Below the pieces are notes generated by a model. That model saw only the letters and a program-made list of their open reading frames with translations, searched no databases and was not told the DNA's origin. Both the position numbers and the translations under genes were made by a program. 64,000 bases of DNA from Blasia pusilla (taxonomy: Eukaryota), in contig CM114271.1 in assembly GCA_050084515.1 (NCBI GenBank), positions 43,214,001 through 43,278,000 on the forward strand, in the 5' to 3' direction. Of this stretch, positions 5,800 through 55,799 are shown one piece after another. Position 1 is the stretch's first letter; the number at the start of each line of letters is the position of its first letter.

Positions 5800-6730
5800 C
5801 TGCTATTATATAGTAGCGGTGCTTGTGGAGCTTTGACGGAGTGACGATCAATGAGCATGTGGAGACAACTTGGAGTGAGATTTTTGCACAAGGTCAAGAT
5901 TTCTCAAAGGATCTTGAGGTATCAAGGAGTGCTAAATTTTAACCCTAGGAAACTACACCCATTGTATGCAAATTTTTGAAGGAGAGCGTGAGGATGTTGG
6001 ATCCCTTTGGAGGGACCAACAAAGGTTTGGTTGTCTTCTTAAAGGTAGGCCTTTTCCTCTAGAAGTTTGAGTATGTGTAGCATGATGAGATTGCAAAATA
6101 GATCTTACTTTGACATATGTTCAAATTGAGGCAAAAGTTCCATGATCTCTTGCTTTAGTAATGTAGGGTTGGTAGAGTTCCTTATTGAAGGAGATCTTCC
6201 TATTGAGGGCAAAGAATCTAGAATAGATGGGCACCATTAATTTGTTGACTACAAGTTGGCCTTGTTAGGGTCAATCAAGTGGTAGTCAAGGGGGTGGCTT
6301 GGGAGACCCTAGGTCTAGATTATTTTGGCCAATAGTGCAAATCTTGCAACATCTGCAAGAGCACCACACCCACTTTGTTCCCTAACTTACATTAAGGAGA
6401 ATGTGTCGTTGTTGGATGACTCTTAGTCGCGAGTAGTGACTAGTGTGCATTAGGATTATGCATAGATTGGATAGACTCTAGTTTTGGACATGGCGAGCAT
6501 GGGGACCACGTACGCATATCCCGCGTCTTTGGTGGACAGATCGAATGTTGCATGAGGTTTTGAGAAGGTTAGGCAAGAGTGGAATGACCCTCCTAATTGT
6601 TGGTGGATTTCATATTGGATCTAGGGCATCAATCACAAGGAATGAGGCACAATGATTGACTCCCATTGAGTGTGGTGAATAGAGTTGGCATGTCAAGAGC
6701 ATCCCTCCTTAAATCCTCCTCACGCCTTGG
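5800..6730 (+). pseudogene. Degenerate C5-cytosine methyltransferase domain of an older copy of the retroelement family
   Basis: Manual translation gives RMLDPFGGT (about 5991, motif I), SWPC*GQSSGSQGGGLGDPRSRLFW (about 6254-6328, motif IV), YIKENV (about 6388-6405, motif VI) and HIPRLWWT (about 6515-6538, motif VIII). Each aligns to 40700-41280. Confidence 0.8.
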
Positions 6731-6929
6731 GGGTTTGAAGGAGGGATAAGTTTGAAACTTTTTTTATTTGTGATTTTCTTGCCATTGATATGCAATTTTT
6801 TTGCTGCTATGCTACGAGTGTTGTCTCCATTTTAATTTTAATTTGCATGCAACTATCATATGAATATCAAGAGTTATAAGACTCAAAGTTTATGAGTCAA
6901 TAAAATTGCACTTTGCAACTATATTGTGG

Positions 6930-7880
6930 TTGATACTTGCAAGAGGAGTGAAGGAGTAGCATATACATTCCTTGATTGAGTGCTGAGTCAAAATGATGCA
7001 CTAGCAATAGTGTTGACAGACCAAGGCATCGAGTTTTGTGAGAAGTTTTAGGCTTGTGTGATCAAATATTGATTGACCACTACACAACATTACAAGATCA
7101 TTCTAAGGTGAATGGTCTAGCCGAGCATGTTGTCCACAAGATGAAGAGGGGTTTGGGCAAGTATGGCTTATAGAGAGTTCGCCTAGCAGGTTGGGACCTA
7201 CAATTCTTATGGTATCTTCCTTCTACATGAATAGAAGGCAGATATCCTTGACATCTTATTCACATTTACTTTTTGCTCTATGGATGAGAGTCGGATGTAC
7301 CTACGACCAATTTTCATGATGCTATCGAGATACAAAACCTTGATGACCTTCATGTGTGGGTATGAGCATGTTCCAAAAGAGTAGAGACATTTTCAAGAGT
7401 CATGCCCATAGCATTTCAAAACTTGGAGATTATACGACATTATGACACCTTGAGGTATGCGATTATTTGGGAAGGAGGATATTGATCGACGATCCCGAGG
7501 TTCTATCAAAGGGACTATATTTACTTGCAGCAGACAATGCCAACAACTTTAGATGTGAAAATCAGGCACACCATTTTGAGGGTGTGCCTTAATTTCTATC
7601 ATTCTCTGGTTAGATGGGCAAGCATATGTTGATATGGTTTGTAATTGGAAGGACCATGAGTAGAATTGCAAATCATGTCACCTTTCTAGTATTTATGGTA
7701 TAATTGATTTGAGCTTGGAATTGGCACCTACAAGCTTATGGTGTATGTTATGTGGATCTGCTAGCCATGCAACCACAATGCTAGTTTGTGATGGATGTTT
7801 GATAGGGTGGCACATGACATGTTTGATTCCACCTCTCACTAGAGTTCCTGAAGGATGATGGATGTGCCCTAGCTAGATGT
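6930..7880 (+). pseudogene. Degenerate integrase + PHD finger of the same older copy
   Basis: Reads VLTDQGIEFCE.., DYIYLQQTMPTTLDV.. and CMLCGSASHATTMLVCDGC..GWHMTCLIPPLTRVPEG*WMCP, matching 36774-37700. Many stops. Confidence 0.85.
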
Positions 7881-7899
7881 ATATGGGATAGATAGTCAT

Positions 7900-17256: not shown

Positions 17257-18444
17257 CTAGACAGTGGCATCCAATCTGGGTTCAAAGGCAATGCCATCAA
17301 TAAGGCCATATCTCAAGCGGTGATCGGCCAGAGGGCAGCCGGGCAAGCGGCGCCACACTCGTTTACTCAAGTCATACAACAACACCAACCTATCGCGGCC
17401 TCGAACGATGAGCAACACCAGTCCATCACTCCCAATACAGATGAACCTCTTGCCACCGCAGAGAAACTCGTCGCACAGAATCTCCGGCATTCGATCCACC
17501 TCCTTCCACTCCAGCTCCGTTCTCTGGAGCTCCCAGATGCAGATGCTCTTGGTGACGCTGTTTTCCCTCAACCCCCCCACGGTGTAGATCTTCCCCTGCG
17601 ACTCGATGAGCATATGGCTGTCTAGGGAGTGCCTCATAGGTGCGTGTATCTGGCTCCAGGTGCCCTCCATCATATCGTAAACGACGAGCCCGTCAGGAGG
17701 ATCGCAGCACCAAGAATACAGGATCCCATCGCACAGCAGAGTGCGGCGAGATGGGAATAATGGCCCCCTTGGAATGTCGCTCGTGATGCTCCAAGCGTTC
17801 GTGTCGGAGTTGAAAACCTCCGTCGTTGGATAGTAGACGTCGTAGATGCCGTAAATTCCCACCACCACGATCTTGTACACTTTGGTTTGGCGATTGACCA
17901 CCATACCGGCCATGTGGTACGTTTGAATGCGCAGCATGGGGGGAAGCTCCCTCCATCGTCTGGTTATTGGGTTGGCCACCACCAGAGTAGTGCGACCGTT
18001 GGTGCAGGAGCTGAAGCACAACAGGCCCCCGGCCGAAGCTATGGGGAGGAACATTTGGTTGACGGGGAGCGGAGGGGGGACGACACTAACCCATCGGTTG
18101 AAATTGGGGTTGTACGTGGACGCTTCTCGGTAGTCCTGGTTGCGGAACATAAAGAACCACGGGCCTTGAGAGGGCCCCTTGGCGTACAACTCTAAGAATG
18201 TTGGGGAGTAAACTAGGGAGTACCAGGACTTGCAAACGGATCGCAATCGGAAGAGGCTGGGGATGGAGAGGTGCGCAAGAATCCGCTCCATCAGATGCTC
18301 TGGTAAGTTGCTCCAGAGCGCCGGGTCCATCGTCACGTTGTTGAATCCTGAGGACTGCATGTACATTGGGACGGCGTCCTCGTAATTCTCCACTTTCTGC
18401 ATTTCCAGCGCCCGTGTCATTGCCCGCGTGACCACCCGGGCCAT
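17257..18444 (-). CDS. F-box/kelch-repeat (F-box associated beta-propeller) protein
   Basis: F-box WSNLPEHLMERILAHLSIPSLFRLRSVCKSW, then ASAGGLLC, VANPITRRWRELPPM and a typical C-terminus AFEPRLDATV. The frame stays open upstream of ATG 18444, so the start is uncertain. Confidence 0.92.
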   Translation of the reverse strand: MARVVTRAMTRALEMQKVENYEDAVPMYMQSSGFNNVTMDPALWSNLPEHLMERILAHLSIPSLFRLRSVCKSWYSLVYSPTFLELYAKGPSQGPWFFMFRNQDYREASTYNPNFNRWVSVVPPPLPVNQMFLPIASAGGLLCFSSCTNGRTTLVVANPITRRWRELPPMLRIQTYHMAGMVVNRQTKVYKIVVVGIYGIYDVYYPTTEVFNSDTNAWSITSDIPRGPLFPSRRTLLCDGILYSWCCDPPDGLVVYDMMEGTWSQIHAPMRHSLDSHMLIESQGKIYTVGGLRENSVTKSICIWELQRTELEWKEVDRMPEILCDEFLCGGKRFICIGSDGLVLLIVRGRDRLVLLYDLSKRVWRRLPGCPLADHRLRYGLIDGIAFEPRLDATV

Positions 18445-20378
18445 TCTTCTTCGCAATCCTCTTTTCCCCCTCAGAATACCCTCCTCATCTTGGTCGTCAC
18501 CATTTCGCTCCTGAAGCTTACCCGTGGCGAGCTTTCTTCACGTCATTCCGAGGTCTCTGGTATCTGATAGAAACACATCCATAATCAATTCAGCTCTGCG
18601 GCATGGTGGGGAACTGAAATCGGCCGCTCTAGAAGATCTCCGCACCATAATAGAACAGTGTCAGGGTACGTATCAGACAGAAACTTCCACGGTGGCATTG
18701 ATCAAATGTACAATGCAAGCGCGAACAAAAGCCACTTTTTGAATTTCAATCTCGAGGCCAGCCAGGAAACAAATCGACCAGGCAAAGGGAAATTCGCCGA
18801 GTCAGGAATTTGTATTACCGCCAGAGATGAGGAAACAAACTCCAAGGCACGGATCTCTTGGAGGGATTAAATCCAAGGCACGGATTTCACATCCCTCAAC
18901 TAGGAAGAGAATGCTAGGAACCTCCGATCCGAGGAATCCATTAAGATATTATGTTGTCTATCTCCACGAAAGGAAGGCAATAGGAGCAAAACAATGGACC
19001 GAAATCGAGAATCATTTGGACTGGAAGAAAAACAACGGGAGGGGACTCAAAGAGACGCACCAGTCAGTCCGACGGACCCCAGAGACGGCCACCGTGGGTA
19101 TGCCCCTACCAGAGATTCCAAAAGACCCTCCACACCACCATGCTCTCTTTCTTCCTACACCATCCTGCTCCCGTCACCTACAACAACCGGTCAAATAGCA
19201 AGCTTCCAACGTACCCATTGGCAGTAACTGCACCTCGAACCCTTTCTTCAGCCTCTGCACTCCTTGTCTCCTCGTCCATGACTCTAGAAGTGCTCGATGA
19301 TTCCGGTCCTCCAGTCACGAATGACTTCGCACTAACAGGTCTGGACCAAAGTTGACAGTTGACAAATAGGAGTACTGTCAACTTGTTGCTGTCATGGATC
19401 GTCTTTGGATGTACACCAATTCCATGCTTGACCTGCTTTGTGTGATTCTTGGCATAACACTTCAAACGCATAGGCCTCCGTGATGTGTTCCATGTCTTTG
19501 GTCGTACAGTCCGACAACATTTTAAATAAATCTTTTGATCTGGATTAATCTATTACGGTTCCCAGGAAGCTGTATGATTTTCTCTTGCCCACGGGTCTAC
19601 AAGTAACAAAACCGGCGTATTCCATGCGCCGTGTGGAGCTATCCTCCGACTTTGCTCTAGCCCTTGCGTACACAGAGAAGTCCGCCTCATGGGACGTAGT
19701 GTTTGAACCTGGGTAACACGAACGAGTGCTCCATGCGATCCCTTCATGTTACAGCCTCCGCAGCTCACCGATTGCAGACATTTGAACCTCATTTTCGCGT
19801 GGAACTCCTGATGCACACAAAAAGACCTGTCGTCTATTTACTTTCTATCATCTACTAGCTCTGTTTTGACCTCCTGCGTGACAGTTCGCTTTGACAACGA
19901 GGATATTTCAGACTTCTCTAACCCATCCATTCATTTGGGATTCTTACAGATGAGACCCATGACCAAATGGGAGCTACCTTTTTGGTTGGCTTCTAGTTAC
20001 AACCTGTACGACGCGAGGATGGGCCACAACGAATGTGCTGTTTGGTTCGTCTTGGAGTGTTATCCAGTCACTGACGCGGAGACCCGACGCCCAAAGGAAA
20101 GGCCGTCAATGCATCCCAAGTAGAGATTCTCTGACGCACCGCACCATCCAGGTTTTCAACTGTCCCACATAGTGCTGGTGCACAGTAGCTTGTCTAAACC
20201 CAAGAACATAGTGCAAGACATTAGAAAGAGCTCGGGGGACAGAGATTATTTGGTAGAGCAAGACTCTACTTCAAATTAAATTTATATCAAACAGCGAATT
20301 TCTCGATGGAAAGTGCCGATTAAAGTCTACACTACAAAGAATCTCCTATTTATCACCGGGGGACAACTAATCTCCTCC

Positions 20379-33156: not shown

Positions 33157-33266
33157 TGTCGTGCGCATACACTTCACTACACAACCACACAGATGTGGTG
33201 TGGTTGTATGTGTCTTGGATTGGTGACATCAATGTATATTGTGTAGCGATGTATATGCACACGACA
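33157..33266. repeat. 110-bp unit bounded by inverted copies of the retroelement A-repeat terminus
   Basis: Starts TGTCGTGCGCATACACTTCACTACACAA and ends TTGTGTAGCGATGTATATGCACACGACA (24/28 inverted match). Both ends match the element end at 35822. Confidence 0.8.
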
Positions 33267-33539
33267 ACTTGCTCTACTAGATCATCTACCTCAAGATGAT
33301 CTTGTAAAGTCATGCGTGTTTAATTAGTGATTGATCTCACAAGACCCAAAAGTTTTTCATCTTATGGATTTCAAAACCAAGATCTCATGCAAAACCTGAT
33401 GCCTTAGTATGTCTACACCTCCACTAGTGTTTCATGTGCATGTCAAGTAATTCATGCTAGCCTAATCCATAACATGGCATAGAGATGCCTCAAAAAATGA
33501 CGATTGTGCTTAATTAGATGTCTTGCCAAAGATCTAGAA

Positions 33540-35091
33540 GATTGTAGAGGAACATTTTGCGGGTATGGGGAGATAATAGGATACAAGTGGTACCTCATCC
33601 TTCCCACCGAGCATGTGTAGTGCAACATGCCCATGAGTAGTTGGGGCATTTTGGAGTAAAGCGTACTTACAGCTTATTCCAGGTTCAATATTGATGGCGC
33701 GGTATGCATATTGGAGTACAGCACTTTGTGGCCAGATGTATGGTATGTGACCAAGTGTGAGCATCCTTCAATGCTCCCACTCCGTAGTTACATCCTTTGC
33801 CGATTATGGGTTTAGGTTATCGGTGGACTTTAGACTTTGCGGGACCTTTGCCATTGACGGGGCGTCACCACAGGTATGTTTTGGTCATGGTGGAGCATTT
33901 CTCCAAGTGGATAGAGTTGGTGGCACTATTAGACAAGGCAAGCGAGGAAACAACATATGCGTTTCTAGATCGTGTGCTTAGTCATTTTGGTGCAGTGGCG
34001 GAGGTGTTGACTAACTAGGGTACCGAGTTTAGGGGAGAGTTTGAGGCCTTGTGTGATTAGGCGCTAGTAGATCACCGCACCACATCTAGAGATCATCTTG
34101 AGGCAGATGGTTGGCGGGGAGAGTTGTCCATACAGTGAAGAGAGGATTGCGCAAGTAGCAAGTATGGCTTGCAGCGGGGACAGTTGAGGGAGTGGGACCT
34201 ATAGTTGCCATGGTTGGCTATGGGTTATCGCTTCAGCTGGCAGGCATCCTTGGCGTCATTTTCACCGTACTTTTTGCTCTTTGGGAGAGAGCCAAATTTA
34301 TCTCCATCTATTTGAGGTGACATGGCGGAGATGTTAGATCTTGATGATCCAAATATGTGGGTATAAGCATGTTCTCACAGGGCAGAGATTTTTCATAGAG
34401 TCATGCCCATGGCCTCTGAGAACTTAGCTATTGCTCAGCATAGGGATACATTAAGGTACGCGACCATTCGTGGAGGAGGTTATCTTCCAGGGATTAGGAG
34501 GTTTCATCTTGGAGATTACGTGTATTTATTGCAGGCCGTACCCGCGACGCTAGATGTCACTGCAGGGCGCATAATCCTACATGTGCGCGAGGTGTTACCG
34601 ACCGGAGTGCTCATGTTGGAGGGACGGGATGGTATGGTTTGGAAGGATCATGTGCGCAACAGTGCACCATGTCACCTTTCAAACGTGGACGGGAGAGTGG
34701 ATCCGAGCTTAGCAATGGTATCTACACGCTGGAGGTGTATGTTGTGTGGATCTACGAGGGATGCAGCCACCATGTTGGTATGTGATGGTTGTTCTCGAGG
34801 GTGGCATATGTCATGTCTGATCCCCCCTCTTGATGTAGTTCCCACGGGACGATGGATATGTCCAAGATGTATATAGGGTAGTAGATCATGTTAGAGAGAT
34901 GTGATATCTGCTATCTGGAGTTGGGGGGATCCAACTACTAGTTTAGGGGGCGGTTGTGTATCTCGATGTATATGTGTGAGTTGATTTTTTGTACTTGTGT
35001 GGATCTACCCGTATGTTGGGGAAAATTAGTATTGTGTGGTGTGGATGTGACCAACGATATATATTGTGTAGCGATATGTATGCGCATGACA
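33540..35091 (+). mobile_element. Truncated older copy of the retroelement: integrase + intact PHD finger + A-type terminus
   Basis: PIMGLGYRWTLDFAGPLP..VEHFSKWIELVAL (33797-34018) and ORF 34403-34876 ending CMLCGS..MLVCDGCSRGWHMSCLIPPLDVVPTGRWICPRC. Then TAGGGGGCG (about 34944) and a terminus ...GTGTAGCGATATGTATGCGCATGACA at 35091. Confidence 0.88.
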
Positions 35092-35821: not shown

Positions 35822-35949
35822 TGTCGTGCGCATACACATCGCTACACAACATACATCGCTGTCACCGAACACACACACAAACACGCATGATCCCATGCTA
35901 ACTCATGGCATCCAAACAACGAGACAAGAAGAACCAAAATATCTCCAAT
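35822..35949. repeat. Split direct repeat A, terminal copy (128 bp)
   Basis: Matches 36466-36593 with 1 mismatch seen (GAACC/GAACA). Confidence 0.95.
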
Positions 35950-36463
35950 TAAAGTAAGATCCAATCTCTCTCTCCACCATCTCACACCATAGCTCTCAAA
36001 GGTGTGCACTCTCTCTCATGTCAAACCAAACCCACTCTCCTAATGAGAGGCTTGGGTTACACTCACAAGGCAAGGTACCATAGCTCCGCCGCCTCATGCC
36101 AAGAGGTTCAACAAAGAGAGAATGAGCTCTCAAGCTCTCTCTCCTTGAGGTATACCCCTCTCCTCTCCCAAGCTCTCTCCATGGTAACCTATTCTCCCAA
36201 GTCATCTCCTTGGCTCTTGACCTGATGTCGGAGGTCAAGGGCCACTTACCAAAAATAGTAAGTCGATCATATACTCAAAATGGTACTTACCTAAAATAGC
36301 AAGTTCCTCAATATGGCTCCAAATGAGCCGAAACGAAGGGGAAACCTGCTATCTCAGGTTTCCAAGGGCCTCAACAGGTCATCCTCGACCTATTGGGCGT
36401 GTCCTCCACTACTCATGAAGGCGCTCTATTAGATCCCACCGATCTATCCTAAAAGACGTGACA
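35950..36463. repeat. Split direct repeat B, internal copy (514 bp)
   Basis: Matches 45773-46286 with about 5 transition mismatches by eye. Confidence 0.95.
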
Positions 36464-36465
36464 GT

Positions 36466-36593
36466 TGTCGTGCGCATACACATCGCTACACAACATACAT
36501 CGCTGTCACCGAACACACACACAAACACGCATGATCCCATGCTAACTCATGGCATCCAAACAACGAGACAAGAAGAACAAAAATATCTCCAAT
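36466..36593. repeat. Split direct repeat A, internal copy (128 bp)
   Basis: Separated from the end of B (..GTGACA, 36463) by GT. On the element strand it is preceded by PPT-like AGGGGGGCG (36594-36602). Confidence 0.95.
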
Positions 36594-36773
36594 CGCCCCC
36601 CTAGCTGGTGGTTAGGTCCCTCTAACTCCAGATAGCCATCTATCCCTACCTACCATGACATACATCTCTCGGACGCTAAGAGCAAGAAGGCCGGGTGCTC
36701 ATGTGGCCCCGTCATTAGTCGCCTCCTTGTCATCCATGTCATAGACACAAGTCGGAATGTAGAACTACCTTCT

Positions 36774-38040
36774 CTATGTACATCTGGGACACATCCATCG
36801 TCCCTGAGGAACCCTAGTGAGAGGTGGCGTCAAACATGCCTTATGCCATCCTCTCGAACACCCATCATAGACTAGCATCGTGGCCGCACCACGGGCAGAA
36901 CCACACAACATATAACGCAAGCCTGCAGGAACTACTACTAAGCTCGGATCTACTGTACCATCAATGTTAGGAAAGTGACATGGCGCACAATTACGCACAT
37001 GGTCCTTCCATACCATACCATCGCGTCCCTCCAGCAAGAGAACACCCGATGGCAAAATGTCACGCATTCTCAAGATAGTGCGCCCTGCAGTCACATCCAA
37101 CGTCGTTGGTGCCGTCTGCTGCAAATAGACATAATCTCCCTGATGAAACCTCCGGATAGTTGGTCGATAACCACCACCTCGAATAGTCGCATACCACACG
37201 TATCTCGATGTTGTGCAATCGCCAAGTTCTCGAACGCCATGGGCATCACTTTCCGAAATAACTCAGCCCTCTGAGAACATGCTCGCACCCATACATTTGG
37301 GTCATCAAGGTTCAGCACCTCACCAGCATCTCGACGAATGGCCGCAGGTAAATATGGCTCTCGGCCATAAAGTAGCAAGTACAGTGAAAAAGACGCTAAG
37401 GATGCCTGCCTGCTGAATCTGTATCCCATCGCCAACCATGGCAATTGGAGGTCCCAATCTCCTAGGTGACCTCTCTGCAAGCCATACTTGCGTAAACCCC
37501 TCTTCACCGTCTGCACAACTCTCTCCGCTAATCCATCCGCCTCACGATGATCTCGCAAAGTCGTGCGGTGGTCGATCAGCGCCTGATCACACAAGGCCTG
37601 GAACTCACAGCGAAACTCGGTACCGTGGTCTGTCAACACCTCAGCTGGTGCGCCATAATGACTCAGCACTCTGTCAAGGAAGGCATAAGCTACTCCCTCA
37701 CTTGCTTTGTCAGGCAAAGCAACCAACTTGATCCACTTCGAGAAGTGCTCGACCATCACCAACACATAACGACTGTGACGCTCCGTCAAGGGCAAAGGTC
37801 TTGCAAAATCCAAACTCCATCTATACCCTAAGCCCATGATCGGTAATGGATGCAACTGTGGAGTCGGAGCATTGAACGATGCTCGGACCCGATCACACAC
37901 CATGCACTGGCAACAAATTCTTCGAACGTCGGTCTGCATGCCTCGCCACCAATATCTGAATCTGGAGCAAGCTATCGTCCGCTTCACCCCAAAGTGACCC
38001 AACTCCTCGTGGGCATCTTTGCACTAGTCGTGCTCTGCAA
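36774..38040 (-). pseudogene. Integrase (HHCC + DDE core) with C-terminal PHD finger, frameshifted
   Basis: AHEELGHFGVKRT..CMVC, RWSLDF..VEHFSKW, VLTDHGTEF, GLAERVVQTVK. PHD at about 36777-36914 reads YMLCGS..MLVYDGCSRGWHKACLTPPLTRVPQGRWMCPRC. Confidence 0.93.
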
Positions 38041-38359
38041 AGGATGCGGCACTCACGCGTACTCTGCCATCCTCCCAAACCCTCAAAACATGTGTCCCCT
38101 CCCAACGGAACGTCGGCCCCCATTTGTAGGATCCGATCCGCTCTCTAGCATCCATGGTGCTCGCAAGGCTACCAGTACGAAGGTACTCTAAGACTACTCC
38201 ATCATCATGAATATCTCGGCCACTTGTCGTGTCCTCACTGGCCTCGGGATCCAAAGACTCTCCACTAGACCTCGCCATCGAAGTCTCCACACTCTGGCTC
38301 TCCATAGCCAACATGCCTAAATAGGCTGACGCGTGCCATCCAAGCACCCCAAGCACCAA

Positions 38360-39750
38360 CTCCTCATCACTCTCTCCATGCCATCGAGCTCCAATCGCAT
38401 CTCGCTGACTCGGGCATGGGTTACGACTCAACCCATCGCATCCTGGTTGAGCGTTCAGTCTATGTACCACCTGAAAATCATACTCTGCAACAACAGAGCC
38501 CATCTCTTAAGCTTCCTGTAAGCTTGTCGGACTCCATCAACCGCCGGTGGTTGATGATCGATGATGATGGTAAAGGGGTTGCCGAATAAGTAACACCTGA
38601 AATGCGCGGCGGCCCACACCACGACCAAGCACTCACCCTCATACGAGCTGTATCGCCTCTCTGGCGTTGTTCGAGCGGCTAGCGTAAGCCACCACAAACT
38701 CTCTACCCTCATCATCATGCTGGGTGAGCACCGCTCCAAGCCCCAACATGCTCCAATCTGTGTGCAACTGGAAAGGACGCCCCCTGATCGGTCTCCTCAA
38801 GATGGGTGCGGACGTCAACCTTTCCTTGAGCAACTGAAATGCTCGCTCCTGCTCATCCCCCCAGTGCCACTCGTGATCCACCTTGGTGAGCAAGGTCAGC
38901 GGCTTCGCAATCGAACTGAATCCCTTGATGTATCGCCGATAGAAGTTCGCCAATCCCATGAATGCGCGAACACGGCTCACATCTGTAGGGCGTGGAATGC
39001 GTGAGATAGCCTCTACCTTTGTCTGTTGAACACCAAGGCCCCCTGGGTATATCGTATGATCCAAGTACTCAATCTGGTCGTAGAAGAACTTGCACTTGCC
39101 TGGATGTAGCTTCAGCCCATGTAATTGCAATCGTCGAAACACCTCCCCTAGATGTTGCTCATGCTCCTCAACCGTGGCGCTAAAGACTACGATGTCATCA
39201 ATATAACACCTAGCAAAATCCAGACCAGCCAAGATCCTATCCATGATCTCTGAAACTCATCCGAGCGTTCTTTAACCCAAATGGTATAAGAACCGCCATT
39301 GGTACAAACAATCCTTCCGTGAGGATCGATGCCCCAAAATGCCGTCTTCGCTGTCCTCCAATCGATAGGCGGTGATGGTATCTAGCTCATAAATCAATGA
39401 ATCAAGACCTTTGCGTGACCAATCACATCAAAGATCTCCTCGAGGGTGGGCATGGCATACCTATCGGACTTCATCTGCGCGATTGATAGGTCGGTAATCC
39501 CCACACATCCGCCTATCCGTCCAGTTGCCATGCACATCCTTCTTGGCGGGCATGACAGTGGCACATCCATACTCCCCATGCGACATCTCCACTAGTCCTA
39601 CTTTGACCAAGTCTTGGCTCCTACTCTGAATCAGAGCCCTCTCCATATCATCTTTGTACTGCCGCCGGAAGATCGGCATATCACTCGACAACTCAATGCG
39701 GATCCCGGTCCCTTCACCGTACCCAAATCCTCCATGCTAAACGCAGCGGC
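38360..39750 (-). pseudogene. Reverse transcriptase + RNase H (Ty3/Gypsy-like), frameshifted
   Basis: RRMCGDYRPIN, DRYAMPTLEEIFD, CYIDDIVVFS, LKLHPGKCKF. RNase H motifs LHTDWSMLGLGAVLTQ, YSSYEGECL, DHQP, DGLSR. Confidence 0.95.
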
Positions 39751-40122
39751 TCCTATAACTCTTGAGGAACGATGTATCGGCGCCGCTCTCCTCTGTCAAC
39801 TTAGGGCCCATATCGGCTCCCAAGTCTCCATCGTGACTACGGTAGGACTCTCGCGCGGGTATCGGTGGTTGCTATGGTGCAACCCGTCTCGAACAACAAC
39901 ACTCAACCGCTCTCCAGAGCCAGCGCAAACTCGATCTCATCCACGTGCAGTGCCCGAAACCACGCTCGATGCTGTGGCTATCATCTCCTTGCGTACCTTC
40001 AAAACATCCCAAGAAGTCCAAGGGTGTCTCTCCCGATCTCCCCTGGTGCGTAGATCTCCTCGGGTCTCACCCCCAGCCATTGCCTCCACCGTCTCGGCAG
40101 GCATGGGGCTCACCAACGCAAC

Positions 40123-40157
<35 letters not shown>

Positions 40158-40329
40158 TCTGGGCACGGGGATTGGTCGGGACGCCATGCTTCCATACCAA
40201 GGTTAGCACGGTTGATAATATCAGCCCAAGTGTTAATTACACGACCTGCCGCAAAATCTGGAGTTCTTAGACATTTGGGACAGAGGAAACGCGCTGTGAT
40301 CTGTCGCGATCTCATACGACGCTGCTCAG

Positions 40330-41300
40330 CCACTCCCAAGCTGAGGATCCATGTCAAGCAGTTCAGGTCCATCGCCTGACCCAAGACATGGCGTCGTGAT
40401 GCCTCGACATCGATGGTACCGCTGCCGTCACTCTGTGGGAAATCCCATCGCCGCTCTCTCTCGTCGGCGTTGGGCTCCACCAACCGCTGAACCTGGTCAT
40501 CCCAAACCAAGCCAAGACCGGCCTCCTTGTATGCATAGGAAGCGGAAAACTCACAACGTGGGCAAGGTGCCCGCGCGCCTGCCTACCCTGTTGACGATCG
40601 GCGGTGGTCGATCATCGTGCCTCATCGCCTTTGTGATCGGCGACTGGATCGAGAATGGAATCCACTAACAAAGGGAGGGGCGCTCCACTCTGCGGAGATA
40701 CGCCCTCCATAACACCGCATGGGGCACCAAGTTGGTTCACCATAGACGCGGGCGATGGGCTCTAGAACCTACACTCGCCGCATCCAAGAACACTGCTGGG
40801 CCGATCCAGGCACGCACCTGATGAGCACTCGTCACGACCCGTGACCTGGAGTCTCCTAAGATCGGCACATTCTCTAGAATGTAGGCTGGAGAATGAGATG
40901 GTGCTCTGCAAGAATCGCCGTAAGACCCTCAACATCTCCCAAAACAACCTGGACCGAGTGTCAGCCAACCCGCTGCCTTGTCCAGCACTCGATTGGCCTT
41001 GACATGGCCAACCGGCAATGACCAAATCAATGGTCCCTACCCGCTCTAAGTCTTGCGCCCCCAACAACAAAATATCCCTCGGTAGGGAACTCACGGTACC
41101 CTCAGATCGCGGAGGCCTTGCACAATAAGTCGGGAAAACGTAGGCGTAATTGCGCCACATGTCGTAGTGAGAGCGCCTCGCAACATCATCACTCTCCACA
41201 TACAATCTTCTTTGTACTCGCACTCCTTCTGCAAAATAAACAACTAACCCGGTGCTAATCCCTCCAAAGAGATCTAACACTCAAATACCCTCCTCCGGGT
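40330..41300 (-). pseudogene. DNMT3-like C5 DNA cytosine methyltransferase domain within pol
   Basis: Motif I VLDLFGGISTG; motif IV IDLVIAGWPCQ (PCQ at 40999-41007); motif VI AYILENV (ENV at 40866-40874, shifted frame); motif VIII GSRAHRPRLW*TN; motifs IX/X EPNADERER..FP..SRRHVLGQAMD. Confidence 0.92.
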
Positions 41301-41714
41301 ACACCACACAATGGGTGTAGTATCCAAGGGTGTCATCGTAGCACTCCCGCTACCTCGGGCTCCTCAGACCGTCACGCTCTGGGTGCAACGCCTCGCTCCA
41401 CGCGGATGCACGTCGTGCGATCGCCAATCGTTGAAGCTCCTCGGCCGAGCCCCACGGCACCTCTCCTCCACGGAATGATGCAGCTACCATAAAACTCCTC
41501 TCCATAGAAATGTCAGGAACGGGAGTATCCTCTGCATGGACATGTCCCTCAATCAAATCACTAGGCCAAGTGATGGCACTACTAAATGCTGCTAAGGTCG
41601 CCATCTCTCCTGGCCGTTGCTCGATCACTGCACATGTGAATCGAACGGGTAATGAGCTAAGGCGCCCATCACCTGACTGCCATCCTGGTCTTTAGGATCG
41701 ACTCCTCCCGATAA

Positions 41715-42100
41715 TCAGGAAAACCCCATCGGGTATAACATTGCTCCACCAACCAAGACGTCGTAGGACTCAGCATCAGTCACTATCGCCTTAGCGCGCA
41801 CCACGGACTCATCTCTAGGATGTCCCGGGCGAATCCTCACCACGACCTCCTGTCGGATGATATACTGTGTGGTACTCGCTCCACCCAAGGATGTCTGTAT
41901 CCGAAATGGACAACACTCCACATCGGCTCTCGTCAAGCCCAATCCTCTGAATGACGCTTTCCCCAACATCAAGGGTTGCGCTCCTGAATCCAACAAGACG
42001 CGCTGCGGACTAAAAGCTCTACCTCCAGGACTCACCAACTGGAAGACCTCTCCTCGGTTATCCAGCAACACAACACCAGGAGAAGCCATGGCACGCTCTA
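41715..42100 (-). pseudogene. Retropepsin-like aspartic protease domain
   Basis: RVLLDSGAQPLMLG (DSG catalytic motif) ... YDVLVGGAML. Confidence 0.85.
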
Positions 42101-42899
42101 TCGCGGGTCTAGCGGGCATCTCCGCCATCCTAGCGCCGCGAACTGCCATGAATCTGGCGTGGGCGGCCCGAGCATCCGCTCCAGGGCAGTCCATCACCTC
42201 CTCTGCAATCACCTCTGAACGTGATGCAGGAACTCCAACTCCGCGCTCACATAGTGAAGCGGCCAGCCGAAAAGCCTCGGCGGGCGTACCTCCCAACGTC
42301 ACAACATCGAAAGCAGAGAATAAAGGAGTGCGGTACACAACGGTGGCCGCCCCCAACAACGTGCTCGACACATGCCCCTCCCGAGCATCAACAATAGGAG
42401 TCGCCTTTTCGCTTCTCCCATCGCCCTCCATGCTTGCACACCAACAACATTACCAACTCTCCAGGAACTTTGATGAGGACCCATCGATGGGGTCCTCATC
42501 GCTTCGGACAACGTGAAAGATTGAGGAAGCCTAGTCTCTCTACTGGCTTCCCCTCGCTGTGGATCCAACTCTACGGCTGCTCCACGCGTCACAACTGCGG
42601 CGGCCTCCATCTGGGCAACCCCGCACATCCATCCAGGATCCTCGGATCTCTGGCTGCTCCATATGATGTCGATGCCACGGATCCGGCATCGGGTAACCTC
42701 AATGCCATAGCAAACAATCTGCTCTTGTAGTCATTTGTCGATCGGCGACCATCCCAGCCTCACGTCCGGCATCTCCCTCGGCGCGTCTAGGTGGTGGTAC
42801 TCTACCTCCTCCACGGGCAGCTCCACCACCCTATCGGGCAACTCCAGCTCCTCGTCCCCCAACGGGACCACCGAGCACGATCTCTAGGCCCACCGGACC

Positions 42900-44250
42900 G
42901 GCTACTCGCTCGAGTGCCCTCTCGGCCCTCGGTCCAGGCGTAACTCAGGATGTAAACTAAAACACTGGCGCGTGTATGACCATACCTCGACAATAGTCAC
43001 ACCGATAATCTCCTGGTGCAAAGACCATCTCCTCCTCCATGCCGAGGCACACGTCCATGACCCCGGCGAGTGCAATCGCGATGATGGGCTCCACCACATG
43101 ACCAACAAGTAATAGTAGGCGGCTGCTGGCGAGCCGCATATGAAGGCGCAGTCTCGGGCACGGCCTCTCGGTATCCTCCCGAGCTCGTGGTGCCCGATCG
43201 ACCTATCTCGAGTCACGTTCTTTGCACAAGTGGTGCAGACAATCGTGACTGCTCTCGCCCAGAACCCATGGTGGCTACGCTCTCCTCCGCCATGTTGCGC
43301 TCAATGTTCTCGGCGGTCCTAAAAACATCTCTCAACGTAGGGGAGGTGTTCATAAGAAGCACCCCCTCCCGCACCCGTGTCCGCAGGGTCCGGTCCAGCA
43401 TCCCATACCATGACTGGATAGCCTGAGCCTCTATCACCCCCTAAGTGACGTTGATCAACCGGCGCAAGCCAGTGTAAGCCTCACGCAAACTCTCACCCGA
43501 GCGCCTCTGGAAGTCGTGGATGCTCCGCAACTTCTCCGTCCGTACCCCCTAGTAGCTCGCCTCAACTCAAAGAAAGAACTCAACCACGAGGGGTTGAACA
43601 CTGGGACGAACCCGACTGGATAGTGCAACTGCTCCCGTGCGAGTGACCCCTCCTAAAACGTCACTAGTGGAAGAGGCAGTAGCCTCTCCTGACTCCTCCT
43701 CCTCATCTGGGAACGGCTCCGTCCATGACACATAGTGTGGGTCATAGTAGAGCCTCCACGCCTCGATCTCACATGCATATCTCTGAGAGAACTCATGGTA
43801 ATCGTCCATGGGCGCCCCCTCTAAATGCTGGAACATACTCTTCCACGCTGTAAACGGGTTGAACTCTCTAGAGTTCCTGGCCTGCTGGGAGTCGCACCAA
43901 CTCCTAAACTCTGCTATAAAATCGTGCCTACTGCACCTGAAAACCTACGCGGTACTCTACCCCGGTCGTCCATCTCGTACGCCCAACTGGTAGGACCACT
44001 CACAATGTGTGGCGATGTGCTCACAAACTCCTCTACACCCTCCCCCTCATCTGACGATGACACAGAAGGAGGTCGAGGTGGTCCCTCACGTGGAGACCCT
44101 CGAAACCTCGCGCCACTCTGCGTAAAACCTCTAGAGCTACTCTCGGGTTCACCACCTCGCCTCTCAAAGTCCCGAACAGACTCCGTGATGACCCTCGTGC
44201 CCCTCTCACCCGATCACTCTGAACCTCATGAGGAATCCCTCAATCACTCA
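42900..44250 (-). pseudogene. Gag-like region with zinc-knuckle remnants
   Basis: Fragments MFQHLEGAPMDDY.. and AIQSWYGMLDRTLRTRVREG; C-terminal CWSCGGAHHRDC and CDYC..YGH knuckle-like motifs. Lies upstream of the protease. Confidence 0.7.
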
Positions 44251-45772
44251 TCCCAAACATGCGGCACTCGATCTACACTCTCTCTCCCCGAGACGTGTAA
44301 CGTGCGGCAACACGCGGCGTGGTGCGGCAAATCGACCAGGCTATCATCTCATCGATAACCTACCCTCAACTCCGGACATCCCACACAGGTCTATGTCCCC
44401 TAAACCACATACATAAATGATGCTCTCAGCATCCACACACCCAATATCCCCAAATAAATCCCCTTAATCCCTCACGTGCGAGGGTAAAGGACCAGAATGG
44501 GTAACTTGAACACATGTCGATGTCGCTCCTCAGCAACTGCAAATCTCGACCCCAACTCGATCGTGGAGATAACTCCTCCAATCAGCAAGTCATACTCCTC
44601 CCGTACTGATGGTGCTCAAAACTCCTCGATAGACAGTGCGGTCCCAGCGGAACGGTGCGGCGTTGCGCGCATTTTAAGGCGATTCTGAACGGCACGGCCC
44701 TCGATGGTGGGATGCGGCACTCGGCGGCACACCCTCCTCAATCAATAATAATCCCACACTCTGCTCCACAATGACGGTGCGGCTCCGCAATTGAGATGGT
44801 GCGGTGCGGCCACGAGCGGCACGGCGCGGCAATCGGCGGCGCGTTGCGGCTACGGGCGTCACGGCACGATACTCGATCGTCGTCGAGCGGCTACCAATCA
44901 CAACATAGCAGCATGAAATCAAAACTCAAACACCATAACCGGAGGTCATCTGCCTTCACTGGTTGATGAAGAAACTGCGATGACGGTGGCGGCCAAAACA
45001 AAGTACGTGGTGGCGACGCAAGTCAAGGAATCCACAAACGTCATGGAAGACCCTCCACTCCGTAATGGCGGCAATGGCACCCAAAGGGTGGACAATGGAC
45101 GGTGGACCCTTGACAGTGACGGTTGACCGCTGATGGTGACGGCCGACCGATGACGGTGACGGTTGACCGTTGACGGTGACTATGATGGCGACGGCCGCCG
45201 CCGGTGTGGCGGCTGATTTAGGGTTTGCACGATTTAACCCTAAAAATCGCCTAGCAATGGCAGCTTTACAAGATTGCCCATAACTTTTTGCTCGCAACTC
45301 CAAATTGTGCACTGTTTGTTGCACACCGTGCACAGCTTCACAATCTACGCTACCATCAAAAAATATTTAGAATCAAACATTTCAGTAAAAACTGACGGGG
45401 ACTGTCGTAAAGCCCAATGTCTCTTTCTCCTACACAAAATTCGGCAGCGCTCCCGCGCTGATTTCTCCCAACGAAAATGTAACATCTGTAAAAATACAAA
45501 TCAGCAAGCTACATGGTGCTCCCGAGAGCACCAGCATGGGGCAACCCGCCCCCATACTCAATCCCTATCAGAAATTGGGCAGCGCTTCCGCACGTCACTC
45601 TTCCACACGAAAAATCGGCAAATGCAAAGAGTAATGAAAGCAGCCCTTGCTCCGGTGAGCACTCCCATGAGCCGCTGAACGGGGAACACGGTCCCCAACC
45701 TGCAAAAACAGCGAGTGACCAGCGAGCTCCCCCATGAAGCTCTCTCACTCTCTCATTCTCTCACTCTCTTTG

Positions 45773-46286
45773 TAAAGTAAGATCCAATCTCTCTCTCCAC
45801 CATCTCACACCATAGCTCTCAAAGGTGTGCACTCTCTCTCATGTCAAACCAAACCCACTCTCCTAATGAGAGGCTTGGGTTACACTCACAAGGCAAGGTA
45901 CCATAGCTCCGCCGCCTCATACCAAGAGGTTCAACAAAGAGAGAATGAGCTCTCAAGCTCTCTCTCCTTGAGGTATACCCCTCTCCTCTCCCAAGCTCTC
46001 TCCATGGTAACCTATTCTCCCAAGTCATCTCCTTGGCTCTTGACCTGATGTCGGAGGTCAAGGGCCACTTACCAAAAATAGTAAGTCGATCATATACTCA
46101 AAATGGTACTTACCTAAAATAGTAAGTTCCTCAATATGGCTCCAAATGAGCCGAAACGAAGGGGAAACCTGCTATCTCAGGTTTCCAAGGGCCTCAACAG
46201 GTCACCCTCGACCTACTGGGCGTGTCCTCCACTACTCATGAAGACGCTCTATTAGATCCCACCGATCTATCCTAAAAGACGTGACA
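45773..46286. repeat. Split direct repeat B, terminal copy (514 bp; element 5' end)
   Basis: Matches 35950-36463, ends ..AAGACGTGACA and is followed by the TSD TATG. Confidence 0.95.
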
Positions 46287-51543: not shown

Positions 51544-54361
51544 TCAATCGTAAGGATTGCGGCCGGAGCTGGAGGAGAATCCAACCTTGAGCGGAGAGAT
51601 GGACGAAACGCTTGCACTGGAGTATCTTCGAGCGCTTCCGTAGGACGAGTCGGGGCTTTCTCGGTCTGGTGAGTAGATGTGCGTCGAAGCACGCGGTCTC
51701 TCGGAGGATTGATAGCCGCTTGAGTGCATACTCAATTCGGCAGCGTAGTCTGGATACCCGTGCTCCACGGAGGAAAAATCTTCTCCCATGTGCTGGGAGA
51801 GAACTGCTGGAGCGCCCGGGAGGAATCCTCCGCTGGGTATGATCGTCTCTAAGGTCCTGAGAACAGTTGTCATGGTTGGCCGTCTGCCTGGCTCGTCGGC
51901 AATGCACGCGAGAGCCAGCTCCAAAAGTTCGAGAACGTCTTGAGCGGGAAGGACGTGCATGGACACCAAAGAAGGGTCAAACACCTCCACGGTCTTATTC
52001 TCAGACACCATTTCTAGCACCCAAGTGGCCAGATCCTTGTCGCTCTTGCCCTTGGGCTCCAGCCCCGTAAGCAGCTCCAGCAGAAGAACGCCGAAGCTGT
52101 AGACATCGCCTTTCTGGGACTTATTGCGGCTGCTGGCCATGAGCTCCGGTGCCAAGTAGCCTTCAGCTGTGATGTGTGTCGATGGTGTCTCGAGCAGCGT
52201 CTCCAATCCGAAATCTGCGACTCGCACCTCAAACCTATCGTCCAGCAGCACATTGGTAGCCTTGAAGTTGCCGTGCACCATGTTTATGTCGTGCAAATGA
52301 GCCAGACCCCTAGCAGCCTCCAATGCGATGTTGTGCCGTGCCGCCCAGCTCAGGTTCTCATGACGTTGCTCCAAGTCCCCTGCGCATGATCAAACCCACG
52401 TACACTCAGCCTCGCATCTTACGAATCCACTCAGATTACAGGAAAACTGACACCGGAGAGATCCTTTGAATCATGTGGATTCATTAAATATGTATGAACC
52501 TAGCTCTACTTTCCACTTGGATCCCAGAAACGGAAGTCGAACAACTGCAGAATGGTCAGCAATCAATTGGTACAGAGCTGCACGGACGTTGAAGGCGTGT
52601 TTGCAAGCTCAAAGGTAAAGTCCATGAAGTCCTATTACCGTGCATAAGAGAGTAGAGACTGCCATTGGACATGAAGTCACAAATAAGCAGCTTTTCGTTG
52701 GGCGACCAACAATAGGCCCTGATGTTCAGTAGATTCGGGTGAGTGACTTTTGCCAGCCTCCTGATCTTGTCTCCGAAGACGTGTTCGTTCTTCAGGCCAT
52801 GTTCTTCGAGCCTCTTGATGGCAAGCATGCGCTTGTCTTCCATGACTGCCATATACACGCCTCCGAATGTTCCGGTCCCGAGAACCATGGCATTCGCTTT
52901 CAGTAGCTCTTCAATCTTCAGTACGAGGGTGCGGTCGAGAATTTTCAGATCGGTCCCGAAGTCCTCGCAGCTGTCTGAAGTCTCAGACTTCTCAGCCCCC
53001 AATTCCTCGATCATCACCTCGTCGCTGTACTCTTCCGGGTCGGGCATCACTTCCACAACACACTTGAGAGCGGGTCTGAGAGATGCTGCTGCAATAAAAG
53101 TAGGTCGATTGGGATCAGGTTCCTGGCGTAATTCCTTACCATCAACCGACCGTAGAGTGGTAGATGTGGACTTATCTTCCTTGGACCATCCACCTTTCCC
53201 ACCGCCATATTTTTCGGAAGCTTTGCGTTTCTTCCACCACAACCAGAAAAGGGTGAATCCCACTGCAGACATCAGCAGCAGCGCAACGTCGCCGGCTGTT
53301 AGCGCTACGATCGTTAGATTGCTGAACCCCTTGGACTTCTTGTGTTCATAGAACCCAGACGGAGGGGGCATCTCGGACCCCAACGGTATGCCGTCGAAAG
53401 GCGGTTGTGGACCCGGACTTCCCTGATAAGGACACGTTTCGACAATGAGAAGCGGATTTCCCTGGAATGCAAGATTTCCGAACTGGCACGCTATGTCCTG
53501 GGGCACCGATCCCGTGAAGTTGTTGTTGCCAAGCTTCAAGTCCTTGAGGGAGGTCAAGTTGAAGAGTGCTGCAGGTATCTCGCCCTGAAGAGAATTTCCT
53601 GACAGGTCGAGGGAGGTTAAGTTGGGAGTGTTCCATGTCGCTGGCAACGTTCCTTGTAGAGAATTTTTGGACAGATCCGCTGTGACGAGGGCTCCGGCAT
53701 TCGCCAAGGATGATGGGATGGGACCGCTGAAATTGTTTGAACGCAAGGAGAGAAATTGCAGCGTCGGGATGTCGGCCAGGTCACCTGGAATGGAGCCCGA
53801 TAATTTATTTCCGCCAAAATCAAGAGTCACCACTTGCCTGAAGTTGGAGAACAATCCTTGCGGAATGGGACCCTCGAACGCATTATTGCCAAGGTTCAGT
53901 TCGTCTAGGAGCACCAGAGTTCCCAACCAATCGGGAAGATGTCCATTCAGCTGATTTCCGTCCAGTGCGAGTTTCTTGAGATGAACCATCACCGCGAAAT
54001 CGTCAGGAATTTCACCTGTGAGAGAATTTTCACTCAAGGTCAGTCTGCTAAGATAGGCCAGCCTTCCGAGTGCTCTTGACATATTTCCACTCAGGCTTGC
54101 CCCTGGCAGCCTCAACCATCTTACAAACCCAGTGCTCCAACATTCCACGCCCTTCCAGTTAGTGCAATGATTATTTCCATCTAGCCAACTTTGCAGTGCA
54201 GTCGAAGTCGCAGCATTTTCCGCTTTGAAATCTCGCAACGCTTGTTCCTCCAAGGAATTCGGATCTACACATGACGCTAGGAAGCTTGAATGCAGCAGGC
54301 CCAGAAAAACTACCCAAGTTCGTAGTGGTAATCCACCACTCCCGCCCGGCTTCAGTCCCAT
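51544..54361 (-). CDS. LRR receptor-like kinase with an atypical kinase domain (LRR-III-like), 2 exons
   Basis: Signal peptide, LRRNT (CTNWKGVEC), about 8 LRRs, a TM helix and kinase GTGTFG..AIKRL. Exons 54361-52639 and 52379-51544 (phase-1 GT-AG). Subdomain VIb is VHGNFKATN (no catalytic Asp), followed by DFG, GYLAPE and DVYSFG. Confidence 0.93.
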
Positions 54362-55799
54362 CAGAATCCTCGTCCTCTTCACTGTCTTCAATCTTCCTAT
54401 TCTTACCTGCTTCACTCACTAATCTACTATATGATCGCAAGGACTCCGGTGACTCACTCACTCGCTTCACTGGCAGTCTACCTCCTCCTCCTCCTCTTCC
54501 TACCGCTGCACTGGATGTACATTCCATCCACAGTCCTCCGCTGCAAAGCAAGATATCGCTTGATGGGAGATGAACATCACAGATTGTATGGTTGAATTCT
54601 TCGACTAGATGTGACAATCCTTACTTGCGCGCTGCACAGTAGACACGGTCGAACACTCAATCCCCATGTCTCTCGTGTTCACTACTCTGGAAATTGCCAT
54701 ATTGCCGGTGGGCCAGATTCGTCTCTCTCTCGTTCGCTCCTCCTCTCTCTCGCGTGCTCCGCGTTGTGCTACCGAGAGAGAGAAAGAGAGAGGGAGTCAC
54801 GTTCAAACTACGAAATTGGGGATCCAGGTGGGGTTCGCGAGAGGAAGGGGCGGCACTAGATGGATCGGGATATGGAGGATCCCACGGAACGGTGGCGAGA
54901 GGGAGGGAGGAGCCACGGACAGCTAGGCAGCCCTGGAGGACAGGAGAGAAGAGATGGAGTGCTGGCGCTCGTTGCAACATCCACAAGTTGCCAGGTCCGC
55001 CGCCGGTGCAGTTTGATCAGGATCAATACCACCCTTCATCATCAGACGCACGAGTTGCTACCTTCGGCTCCCGCCCTTCCAGCCTCTCACCAACCTGGTT
55101 TCTCCGCCTTCCGGTCTCCCCTCCTCCCTCCCCGACTCTCCGCCGGATTGGCTCCGTGGTCCCCACTCCTGTCGCTCAATCTCGACTCCCGCCATCCCCA
55201 GATTCGCCACTCCGTCCTCGCCGAAGATGCATTTCTAACACGGCGTGAACTGAGATTCCACATCCGTCCTCAGTCCGTTTGGACCCGAAAGTTGGAACGC
55301 CGCGAGCACTCGGCTTATCTTTAGCACCCTTGCAATCCAATAGCAACGTCGCCCTGCAAGTCTTCTTCCGTGGAGTTTTCTTGCCTCAGAATTTCAAAGG
55401 ATATATGCCGGTCAATTGACGACTTGGGATAAGAATTTGGTTGGATCATCATCTAACATGGTTGTTAGATTATTTTATTCAAAGAATATAAACGATTTTA
55501 TTTTATGATTTTCAAATGGCACCTATACTTTGAACCCTTAATGTAGGATGCCTGGTATGGGCATTAGGTAACTTAACGGGGCATCGAGGGTTACGAGATC
55601 CCGGAGTGTTCCCTCGCGGACCCTAACTAGTATGGTATAAATGATCGGGAATGATTTTAAACCTTCCAGAGGGATAGGGAGAAAATAATTATCAAACATT
55701 TGAAGGGTAGGTTAGAGGAAAAAAAATATGGAGGGCTCGTAAAGAATTCATGTCATTATTTCTTTGAGAGATTTGGTTATTTTCATAATTACAAATAGA

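Follow-up and report, generated by a model that had tools for sequence, protein, structure and literature searches.

The locus examined here raises the question of what a PHD finger does at the C-terminus of a retrotransposon integrase. In the window, by which we mean the whole 64,000-nucleotide stretch of Blasia pusilla DNA that was analysed, the initial annotation had described three such fingers, and had proposed that they read unmethylated H3K4, steer integration away from active promoters and, together with a DNA methyltransferase (DNMT) of the same polyprotein, reproduce the ADD-plus-methyltransferase logic of DNMT3. The elements concerned are laid out as follows, with the finger under study in the first of them.

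33552..35091, plus strand: 5'-truncated, dead subfamily-1 copy, from integrase to terminal repeat B, holding the flagged PHD
33554..34366, plus strand: integrase H2C2 and DDE core, in the frame of the PHD, with 10 premature stops
34367..34876, plus strand: open frame with integrase C-terminal helices, SH3-like beta barrel, linker, PHD and stop
about 34499-34680, plus strand: SH3-like beta barrel, five strands ahead of the PHD in an AlphaFold2 model
34736..34870, plus strand: intact C4HC3 PHD finger (Pfam PHD PF00628, E=6.4e-12, 45.7 bits against a cut-off of 24; PDB matches)
34953..35091, plus strand: terminal repeat B with a CA end, preceded by a purine tract
35822..46286, minus strand: full-length, degenerate subfamily-2 copy with TG..CA ends and a 4-bp target duplication
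35822..35949, minus strand: repeat B2, 99% identical to B1
35950..36463, minus strand: repeat A2, 99% identical to A1
36466..36593, minus strand: repeat B1, with a polypurine tract before it and a 2-nt spacer after it
36777..36914, minus strand: second PHD, 2 of 8 zinc ligands lost
37094..38023, minus strand: integrase H2C2 and rve core (Pfam)
38458..39736, minus strand: reverse transcriptase and RNase H, frameshifted
39863..39874, minus strand: in-frame TAG followed by CAA CCA between DNMT and RT, a CARYYA readthrough-type context
40070..41280, minus strand: DNMT3-like C5 methyltransferase, in pieces (Pfam PF00145, 3.2e-9)
41718..42449, minus strand: presumably an aspartic-protease-like region, from its LLDSGA motif; no Pfam match
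42905..44213, minus strand: gag-like region with zinc knuckles, in pieces, labelled by position and motif
45773..46286, minus strand: repeat A1
5994..7899, plus strand: third, older remnant with DNMT pieces, integrase and a broken PHD
5994-6522, plus strand: DNMT pieces of the third remnant
6941-7546, plus strand: integrase of the third remnant
about 7742-7875, plus strand: broken PHD of the third remnant, with an internal stop and the last ligand missing

The description of an intact C4HC3 PHD at the integrase C-terminus was borne out: the finger terminates the open frame and is in frame with the integrase core, the latter bearing the 10 premature stops. Fingers were also found at all three proposed places in the window, but only that at 34736-34870 is intact, the other two being damaged. 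Because the flagged copy is confined to 33552-35091, it lacks its own RT and DNMT in the window. It is matched by a full-length subfamily-1 copy at 89% nucleotide identity over this span only, and has no A2-B2 after its repeat B. Directly upstream, at 33159-33269, lie two more B-type element ends in opposite orientations, which mark nested insertions that truncated the flagged copy. The neighbouring copy at 35822-46286 has terminal repeats that are 99% identical, yet stops and frameshifts are numerous in its coding region, for which mobilisation in trans, rapid decay of methylated DNA or an assembly error might account. Its DNMT region holds a private 170-bp insert (40124-40295) that is missing from the reads of the family; the first 44 bp run on into large-subunit rRNA reads, parts match a small contig (C21) and scattered loci, and an Rfam search of the insert gave no match. 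This insert is probably organelle-derived filler DNA. Host genes near the cluster encode an F-box/Kelch protein (17257-18537, minus strand) and an LRR receptor-like kinase (51544-54415, minus strand), the latter at a distance of some 5 kb from the full-length copy.

A search of the genome (390 Mb) with the flagged open frame gave 13,523 candidates, of which 150 were scored; these were all full length, 80-100% identical and present on all large contigs. Family sequence also made up 5 of 40 evenly spaced 450-bp control stretches, and the family thus occupies roughly a tenth of the genome. Seventy distinct copies fell into subfamilies of 38 and 31 with about 75% nucleotide identity between them, one copy being unassigned. 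The layout is A1-gag-PR-DNMT3-like-[TAG CAA CCA]-RT-RH-IN-SH3-PHD-B1-A2-B2; of 20 subfamily-1 copies that were fetched, 17 have a DNMT ahead of the PHD. The PR-RT-RH-IN order, DDE integrase, TG..CA ends and target duplication are of Ty3/Gypsy type. In one genomic copy RT-RH-IN-PHD forms an open frame of 786 aa, so that the fusion of integrase and PHD is real and a trait of the family; the stretch from integrase core to PHD is stop-free in 4 of 20 measurable copies, and the finger has all eight ligands and no stop in 34/38 and 19/31 copies of the two subfamilies. The methyltransferase of a sister copy matched DNMT3A/B in 23 of 23 PDB matches, and the catalytic Cys of the DNMT is found in 17 of 24 aligned copies, the remainder being largely misframed. 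A relative has a Pfam zf-CCHC match upstream of its DNMT.

The PHD is under purifying selection. Between the subfamilies (38 x 31 copies) its dN/dS is 0.14 (dS 0.96, dN 0.135), a large contrast even though dS is near saturation and the copies were chosen by similarity; the corresponding values are 0.13 for the integrase core, 0.18 for RT and 0.22 for DNMT. Within-subfamily ratios were discarded because copies had been picked by protein similarity and some alignments were misframed. The family is also transcribed, which is a statement about RNA and not about mobility. In three RNA-seq runs from one study (10-12 million reads) we mapped 3,874, 3,365 and 4,598 reads to the internal region of the element, covering 30 of 30 bins, mostly on the strand expected of sense RNA and deepest over IN-PHD. 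Most of these reads are 90-95% alike and thus derive from copies other than those of the window; indeed, nearly all reads over the finger have the ligands that are missing from the copy at 36777-36914.

The ends of the element differ from ordinary LTRs in that the repeats are ordered A1...B1-2 nt-A2-B2; two complete terminal LTRs with a primer-binding site after the 5' LTR were not found, and by eye neither subfamily has a TGG-type or tRNA-type primer site after A1 (from 45773, minus strand). The B1/B2 repeat is present in 52 of 70 copies, and most of the others end after B1. A 4-bp target duplication, whose letters show no strong motif, flanks 11 of the 12 copies with both ends located, including both of the two that end at B1. 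A purine tract directly precedes B1. The two bases that separate CA from TG are mostly GC or what deamination makes of it, and copies differ at the A2|B2 joint by small losses and additions. This arrangement would suit the insertion, at an internal site, of circles with either two LTRs or one, although the short form ending at B1 could also stem from recombination between B1 and B2.

What, then, might the finger bind? Its best PDB matches are CHD4, PHD1 of KDM5B/KDM5A and BHC80, and its AlphaFold2 model lies within about 1.1-1.2 A of the H3-bound fingers of ATXR5 and BAZ2A. We numbered its residues as in KDM5A, following the account of the H3-bound structure (bioRxiv 10.1101/715474), according to which L309, P331, G333, W335 and D312 hold H3A1 and R2. 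In the family each of the Ala1-pocket residues (L309, P331, G333, W335) is found in 68 of 69 copies and the Arg2 aspartate D312 in all 69, together with a hydrophobic residue before Cys3; position 308 is Met in 67/69. As had been noted initially, the residue two before the His, where H3K4me3 readers have the cage Trp, is Gly; it is invariant in an alignment of 25 sequences and present in 68/69 copies and 120/132 relatives. The absence of this Trp excludes a K4me3 reader, yet is no proof of a K4me0 reader. The defining feature of H3K4me0 readers is a cluster of acids ahead of Cys1, as described in PMC3241642, and in KDM5A the K4-recognising acids are given as E305/D306, with the backbone carbonyls of 291, 292 and 294 and the hydrophobic residue 308 also holding K4 (bioRxiv 10.1101/715474). 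In our copies, acids before Cys1 or at 305/306 are lacking and the residues are mostly Ala/Gly: position 305 is Ala in 69/69, 306 is acidic in none, 292 is acidic in 1/69 and 315 is Ser in 68/69. Position 304 is Asp in 6/69 copies, the flagged one included, and an Asp 12 residues ahead of Cys1 is invariant (69/69). The groove region of close relatives has a net charge of 0 to +4, which would be unfavourable to the basic H3 tail. The proposed H3K4me0-reader class thus finds agreement in the CHD4/KDM5/BHC80 matches and in the absence of a cage, but not in the K4 acids before Cys1 and at 305/306. From these residues, tethering to the H3 tail appears plausible, while selectivity for K4me0 is unsupported.

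In a structure prediction of the complex, the finger with residues 1-30 of host H3 scored 0.42 against 0.00 for the best control, the runs agreeing in at least 85% of contacts, but as support for H3 binding the prediction was rated weak, with no contacts given and a partner pLDDT of 56. Among solved pairs, 51 of 78 pass the mark for such scores, as do 2 of 108 mismatched ones, and passing scores of 0.60 or below came from only 5 solved pairs and from all 4 passing mismatches; as PHD-H3 complexes have already been solved, a pass may also be memory. The top Foldseek matches, the Tudor-PHD tandems of PHF1 and UHRF1/2, were rejected as a shared tandem (TM ~0.28, rmsd ~12 A), and the ESM Atlas held one IN+PHD cluster with uninformative taxa.

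With moderate confidence we favour the view that the finger is a predicted chromatin-contact module at the integrase C-terminus of a KnitGypsy-Dnmt3-like family, likely a chromatin tether, for which a role in targeting is plausible. It would hold the integration complex on nucleosomes via the free H3 N-terminus, through the Ala1 pocket and the Arg2 aspartate, and its reading of K4 methylation would be weak or relaxed owing to the loss of the acidic K4 residues in a streptophyte subclade. It would act apart from the DNMT, which would come from the first reading unit along with Gag-PR, and production of RT-RH-IN-PHD would require readthrough of the in-frame TAG.

A strict H3K4me0 reader that diverts insertions from H3K4me3 promoters, as initially proposed, seems unlikely to us. 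The absent cage Trp would suit it, and K4 contacts in KDM5A include backbone carbonyls and residue 308, here almost always Met, while the invariant Asp ahead of Cys1 could substitute for the acids; a PHD-bearing element of Chlamydomonas, Gypsy-7a_cRei, is moreover described as intergenic 2.6x over chance, a bias to which selection may have contributed. However, the class-defining acidic cluster is absent here, though 121 of 132 distant relatives retain an acid, the copies are distributed along all large contigs, and a crude test of their flanks gave no bias. For this test, the 3' flanks of 57 copies (13 of 70 had no usable flank) were compared with 40 evenly spaced stretches using a small repeat library. 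Matches to the library were found for 28/57 flanks and 16/40 controls (p=0.41), and matches to element bodies only for 14/57 and 5/40 (p=0.20), neither a significant difference; the test is weak, since old copies cannot tell targeting from selection, and a control with histone-gene flanks (4/24) was rejected as unfair. The possibility that the finger has lost histone reading and binds a nucleic acid or protein partner (target DNA, the element's own cDNA or circle, the integrase multimer or a host factor) is doubtful as well, if slightly less so. In one subclade the acids were lost and a net basic surface was gained jointly (99% SH-aLRT, 11 of 12 rows acid-free), and the PHD of BAZ1A, with neither cage nor acids, is reported to bind DNA and no histone peptide, the BRD1 PHD likewise being DNA-binding (PMC5636791); purifying selection is silent on the identity of the ligand. 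On the other hand, the finger retains the A1-pocket residues and D312, though these are partly structural, and a score for the H3 complex is present, albeit weak.

Does the finger work together with the DNMT? In both subfamilies an in-frame TAG separates DNMT from RT; it is present in 22 of 24 aligned copies (28 examined) and followed by CAA CCA in 20. TAG CAA CCA fits the readthrough motif UAG-CARYYA described for plant viruses (PMC4132726), and this readthrough-type stop sits after the DNMT, not after gag. Close relatives are annotated as two proteins, gag-PR-DNMT (~1,330 aa) and RT-IN-PHD (~1,030-1,080 aa). We infer that the DNMT would be made at Gag-like levels and IN-PHD only by putative readthrough, and that the protease should split the two. 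A shared polyprotein, as the initial annotation had it, would accordingly exist only as the putative readthrough product, which the element's protease should cleave, and the ADD+MTase logic did not hold up, as the conserved TAG and RT-RH-IN lie between DNMT and PHD. The PHD is located ~1,100 aa downstream of the methyltransferase, past the stop, and Pfam and PDB searches with the finger returned a canonical PHD and no ADD domain match. ADD autoinhibition in DNMT3 requires docking of the reader directly on the catalytic domain.

It is very improbable, in our estimate, that PHD and DNMT form a coupled, ADD-like reader-writer in which H3K4me0 licenses methylation. That the domains travel together speaks for such coupling, both in the subfamily-1 copies described above and in 15 of 18 distant representatives with RT and IN motifs, where the DNMT lies between RH and IN in the ORF of the PHD, and both domains are under purifying selection. 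Against it stand the intervening ~1,100 residues and stop, the annotation of close relatives as separate proteins, the canonical nature of the PHD, a Closterium relative that has DNMT, RT and IN and no Pfam PHD, and the need for direct docking. The analogy better suits the distant clade, with RT-RH-DNMT-IN-PHD in one ORF and an acidic PHD.

This distant clade emerged from a protein-library search that gave 275 clusters (50% identity) at E<=1e-30. Among the best 150 of these the finger is intact in 132, and 121 of the 132 carry an acidic residue ahead of Cys1 or at 305/306; the median net charge is -4. Two representatives could be added to the 15 with the DNMT placed likewise. Pfam finds DNMT plus PHD in P0111, P0147, P0240 and P0255; these and others are intact single ORFs of the order RT-RH-DNMT-IN-PHD with a tail of 100-360 aa without Pfam match. 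One member of the clade is from Haematococcus. The nearest named relatives of our family are from Calypogeia, Marchantia and Sphagnum, where pieces of the family (P0004, P0005, P0040, P0045-P0049 and P0112-P0117) have entered the annotation as hypothetical, PHD or methyltransferase proteins of the host. A quick tree with a midpoint root was built from 80 rows of the integrase segment, leaving out the PHD; rows with a broken finger or short upstream segment, among them the subfamily-2 row, were excluded. In this tree our family falls within a 12-row clade of 99% support that takes in Coleochaete, Marchantia and Sphagnum proteins, a Coleochaete scutata transcript grouping with the family. Eleven of the 12 rows are acid-free, and the PHD stands at the very end in all. 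On this tree a streptophyte subclade appears to have lost the acids secondarily, with the root being a midpoint root only.

Parts of this design are already published, as both PHD-bearing Gypsy elements and a Gypsy element with DNMT3 have been described. The closest is KnitGypsy-Dnmt3 of Klebsormidium nitens, with DNMT3 in a Gypsy Pol under purifying selection (de Mendoza et al., 2018, PMC5890265). Going by the published description, our family resembles it in the DNMT3-related methyltransferase within a Gypsy-type Pol, in purifying selection, and in DIRS-like A-coding-B-A-B repeats on a Gypsy domain set with 4-bp duplications, but its host is a land plant, where it reaches a very high copy number. 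No sequence from Klebsormidium was among the matches of our searches, so that the likeness is to the published element as described. The text of PMC5890265 and three of its supplement files contain no mention of a PHD or readthrough stop, the labels of Fig. 4c lying outside this scope. Gypsy-7a_cRei carries a PHD in Gag-Pol and shows intergenic bias (bioRxiv 10.1101/2022.06.16.496473); it and REM1 resemble our family in having a PHD in a Gypsy polyprotein, proposed there to limit harmful insertions, whereas for Gypsy-7a no DNMT is listed and the legend places PHD before INT. Retrotransposon PHDs are called widespread in PMC6673714 and bioRxiv 10.1101/2021.11.30.470311, and EpiLTRs are described as combining a reader with DNA methyltransferases (bioRxiv 10.64898/2026.05.21.726589; PMC12344493). 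Like these, CopiaMBD and the chromodomain integrases of chromoviruses (PMC6317226, PMC6673714), our family has a retrotransposon-borne chromatin reader, and the finger takes the position of the chromovirus chromodomain at the integrase C-terminus, as described there. The reader, however, is a PHD and not a chromodomain or MBD (a Pfam search of family proteins gave no Chromo match), the methyltransferase is DNMT3-like and not DNMT4-related, and there is no DAM. Judged by the published accounts, the finger shares fold, zinc ligands, A1 pocket, R2 Asp, hydrophobic 308 and lack of a cage with KDM5A/KDM5B PHD1, BHC80, AIRE, CHD4 and BAZ2A, but differs from KDM5A-type fingers in non-acidic equivalents of D292, E305, D306 and D315 and a net basic groove region. 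In lacking both aromatic cage and K4 acids it is like the PHD of BAZ1A as reported in PMC5636791, a likeness drawn from these two features, the DNA-binding residues of BAZ1A being a lysine pair. We found no report of a land-plant Gypsy with DNMT3 or PHD, and none in the consulted text of PMC6317226, PMC9985172 and PMC12885004; subscription papers, Repbase, figures and bioRxiv supplements may hold one.

Taken jointly, these relationships allow a broader and improbable reading, in which a largely unannotated green-lineage Gypsy clade, with named members in Haematococcus, Coleochaete, Marchantia, Calypogeia and Sphagnum, carries an ancient reader-writer kit that was rewired in streptophytes. The ancestral order would be RT-RH-DNMT3-IN-PHD with an acidic K4me0 finger, so that, if true, one ancestral product could pick H3K4-unmethylated chromatin and methylate the new copy. 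In streptophytes the DNMT would have moved ahead of the readthrough stop, and hence be made at Gag levels, and the finger would have changed its ligand; the DNMT might methylate the cDNA or its nuclear circle, and the integrase might insert one- and two-LTR circles through the internal CA-nn-TG site. As the family is still transcribed in Blasia pusilla, this reading is testable.

Independently of this, with this family the range of Gypsy elements that carry a DNMT3 grows from an alga to include liverworts and mosses. Its DNMT3-like fragments, which number in the thousands, can mislead inventories of methyltransferases, and several are annotated Marchantia host genes. In Blasia, two small contigs (C20 and C23) gave strong full-type C5-methyltransferase matches, unlike the transposon fragments, and are possibly non-host DNA. 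The readthrough stop and the permuted repeats suggest that the element replicates in an unusual way. Lastly, targeting by retrotransposon PHDs has long been assumed, binding data being absent from the literature surveyed, and the acidic and non-acidic fingers on homologous integrases offer a natural pair for testing this assumption.
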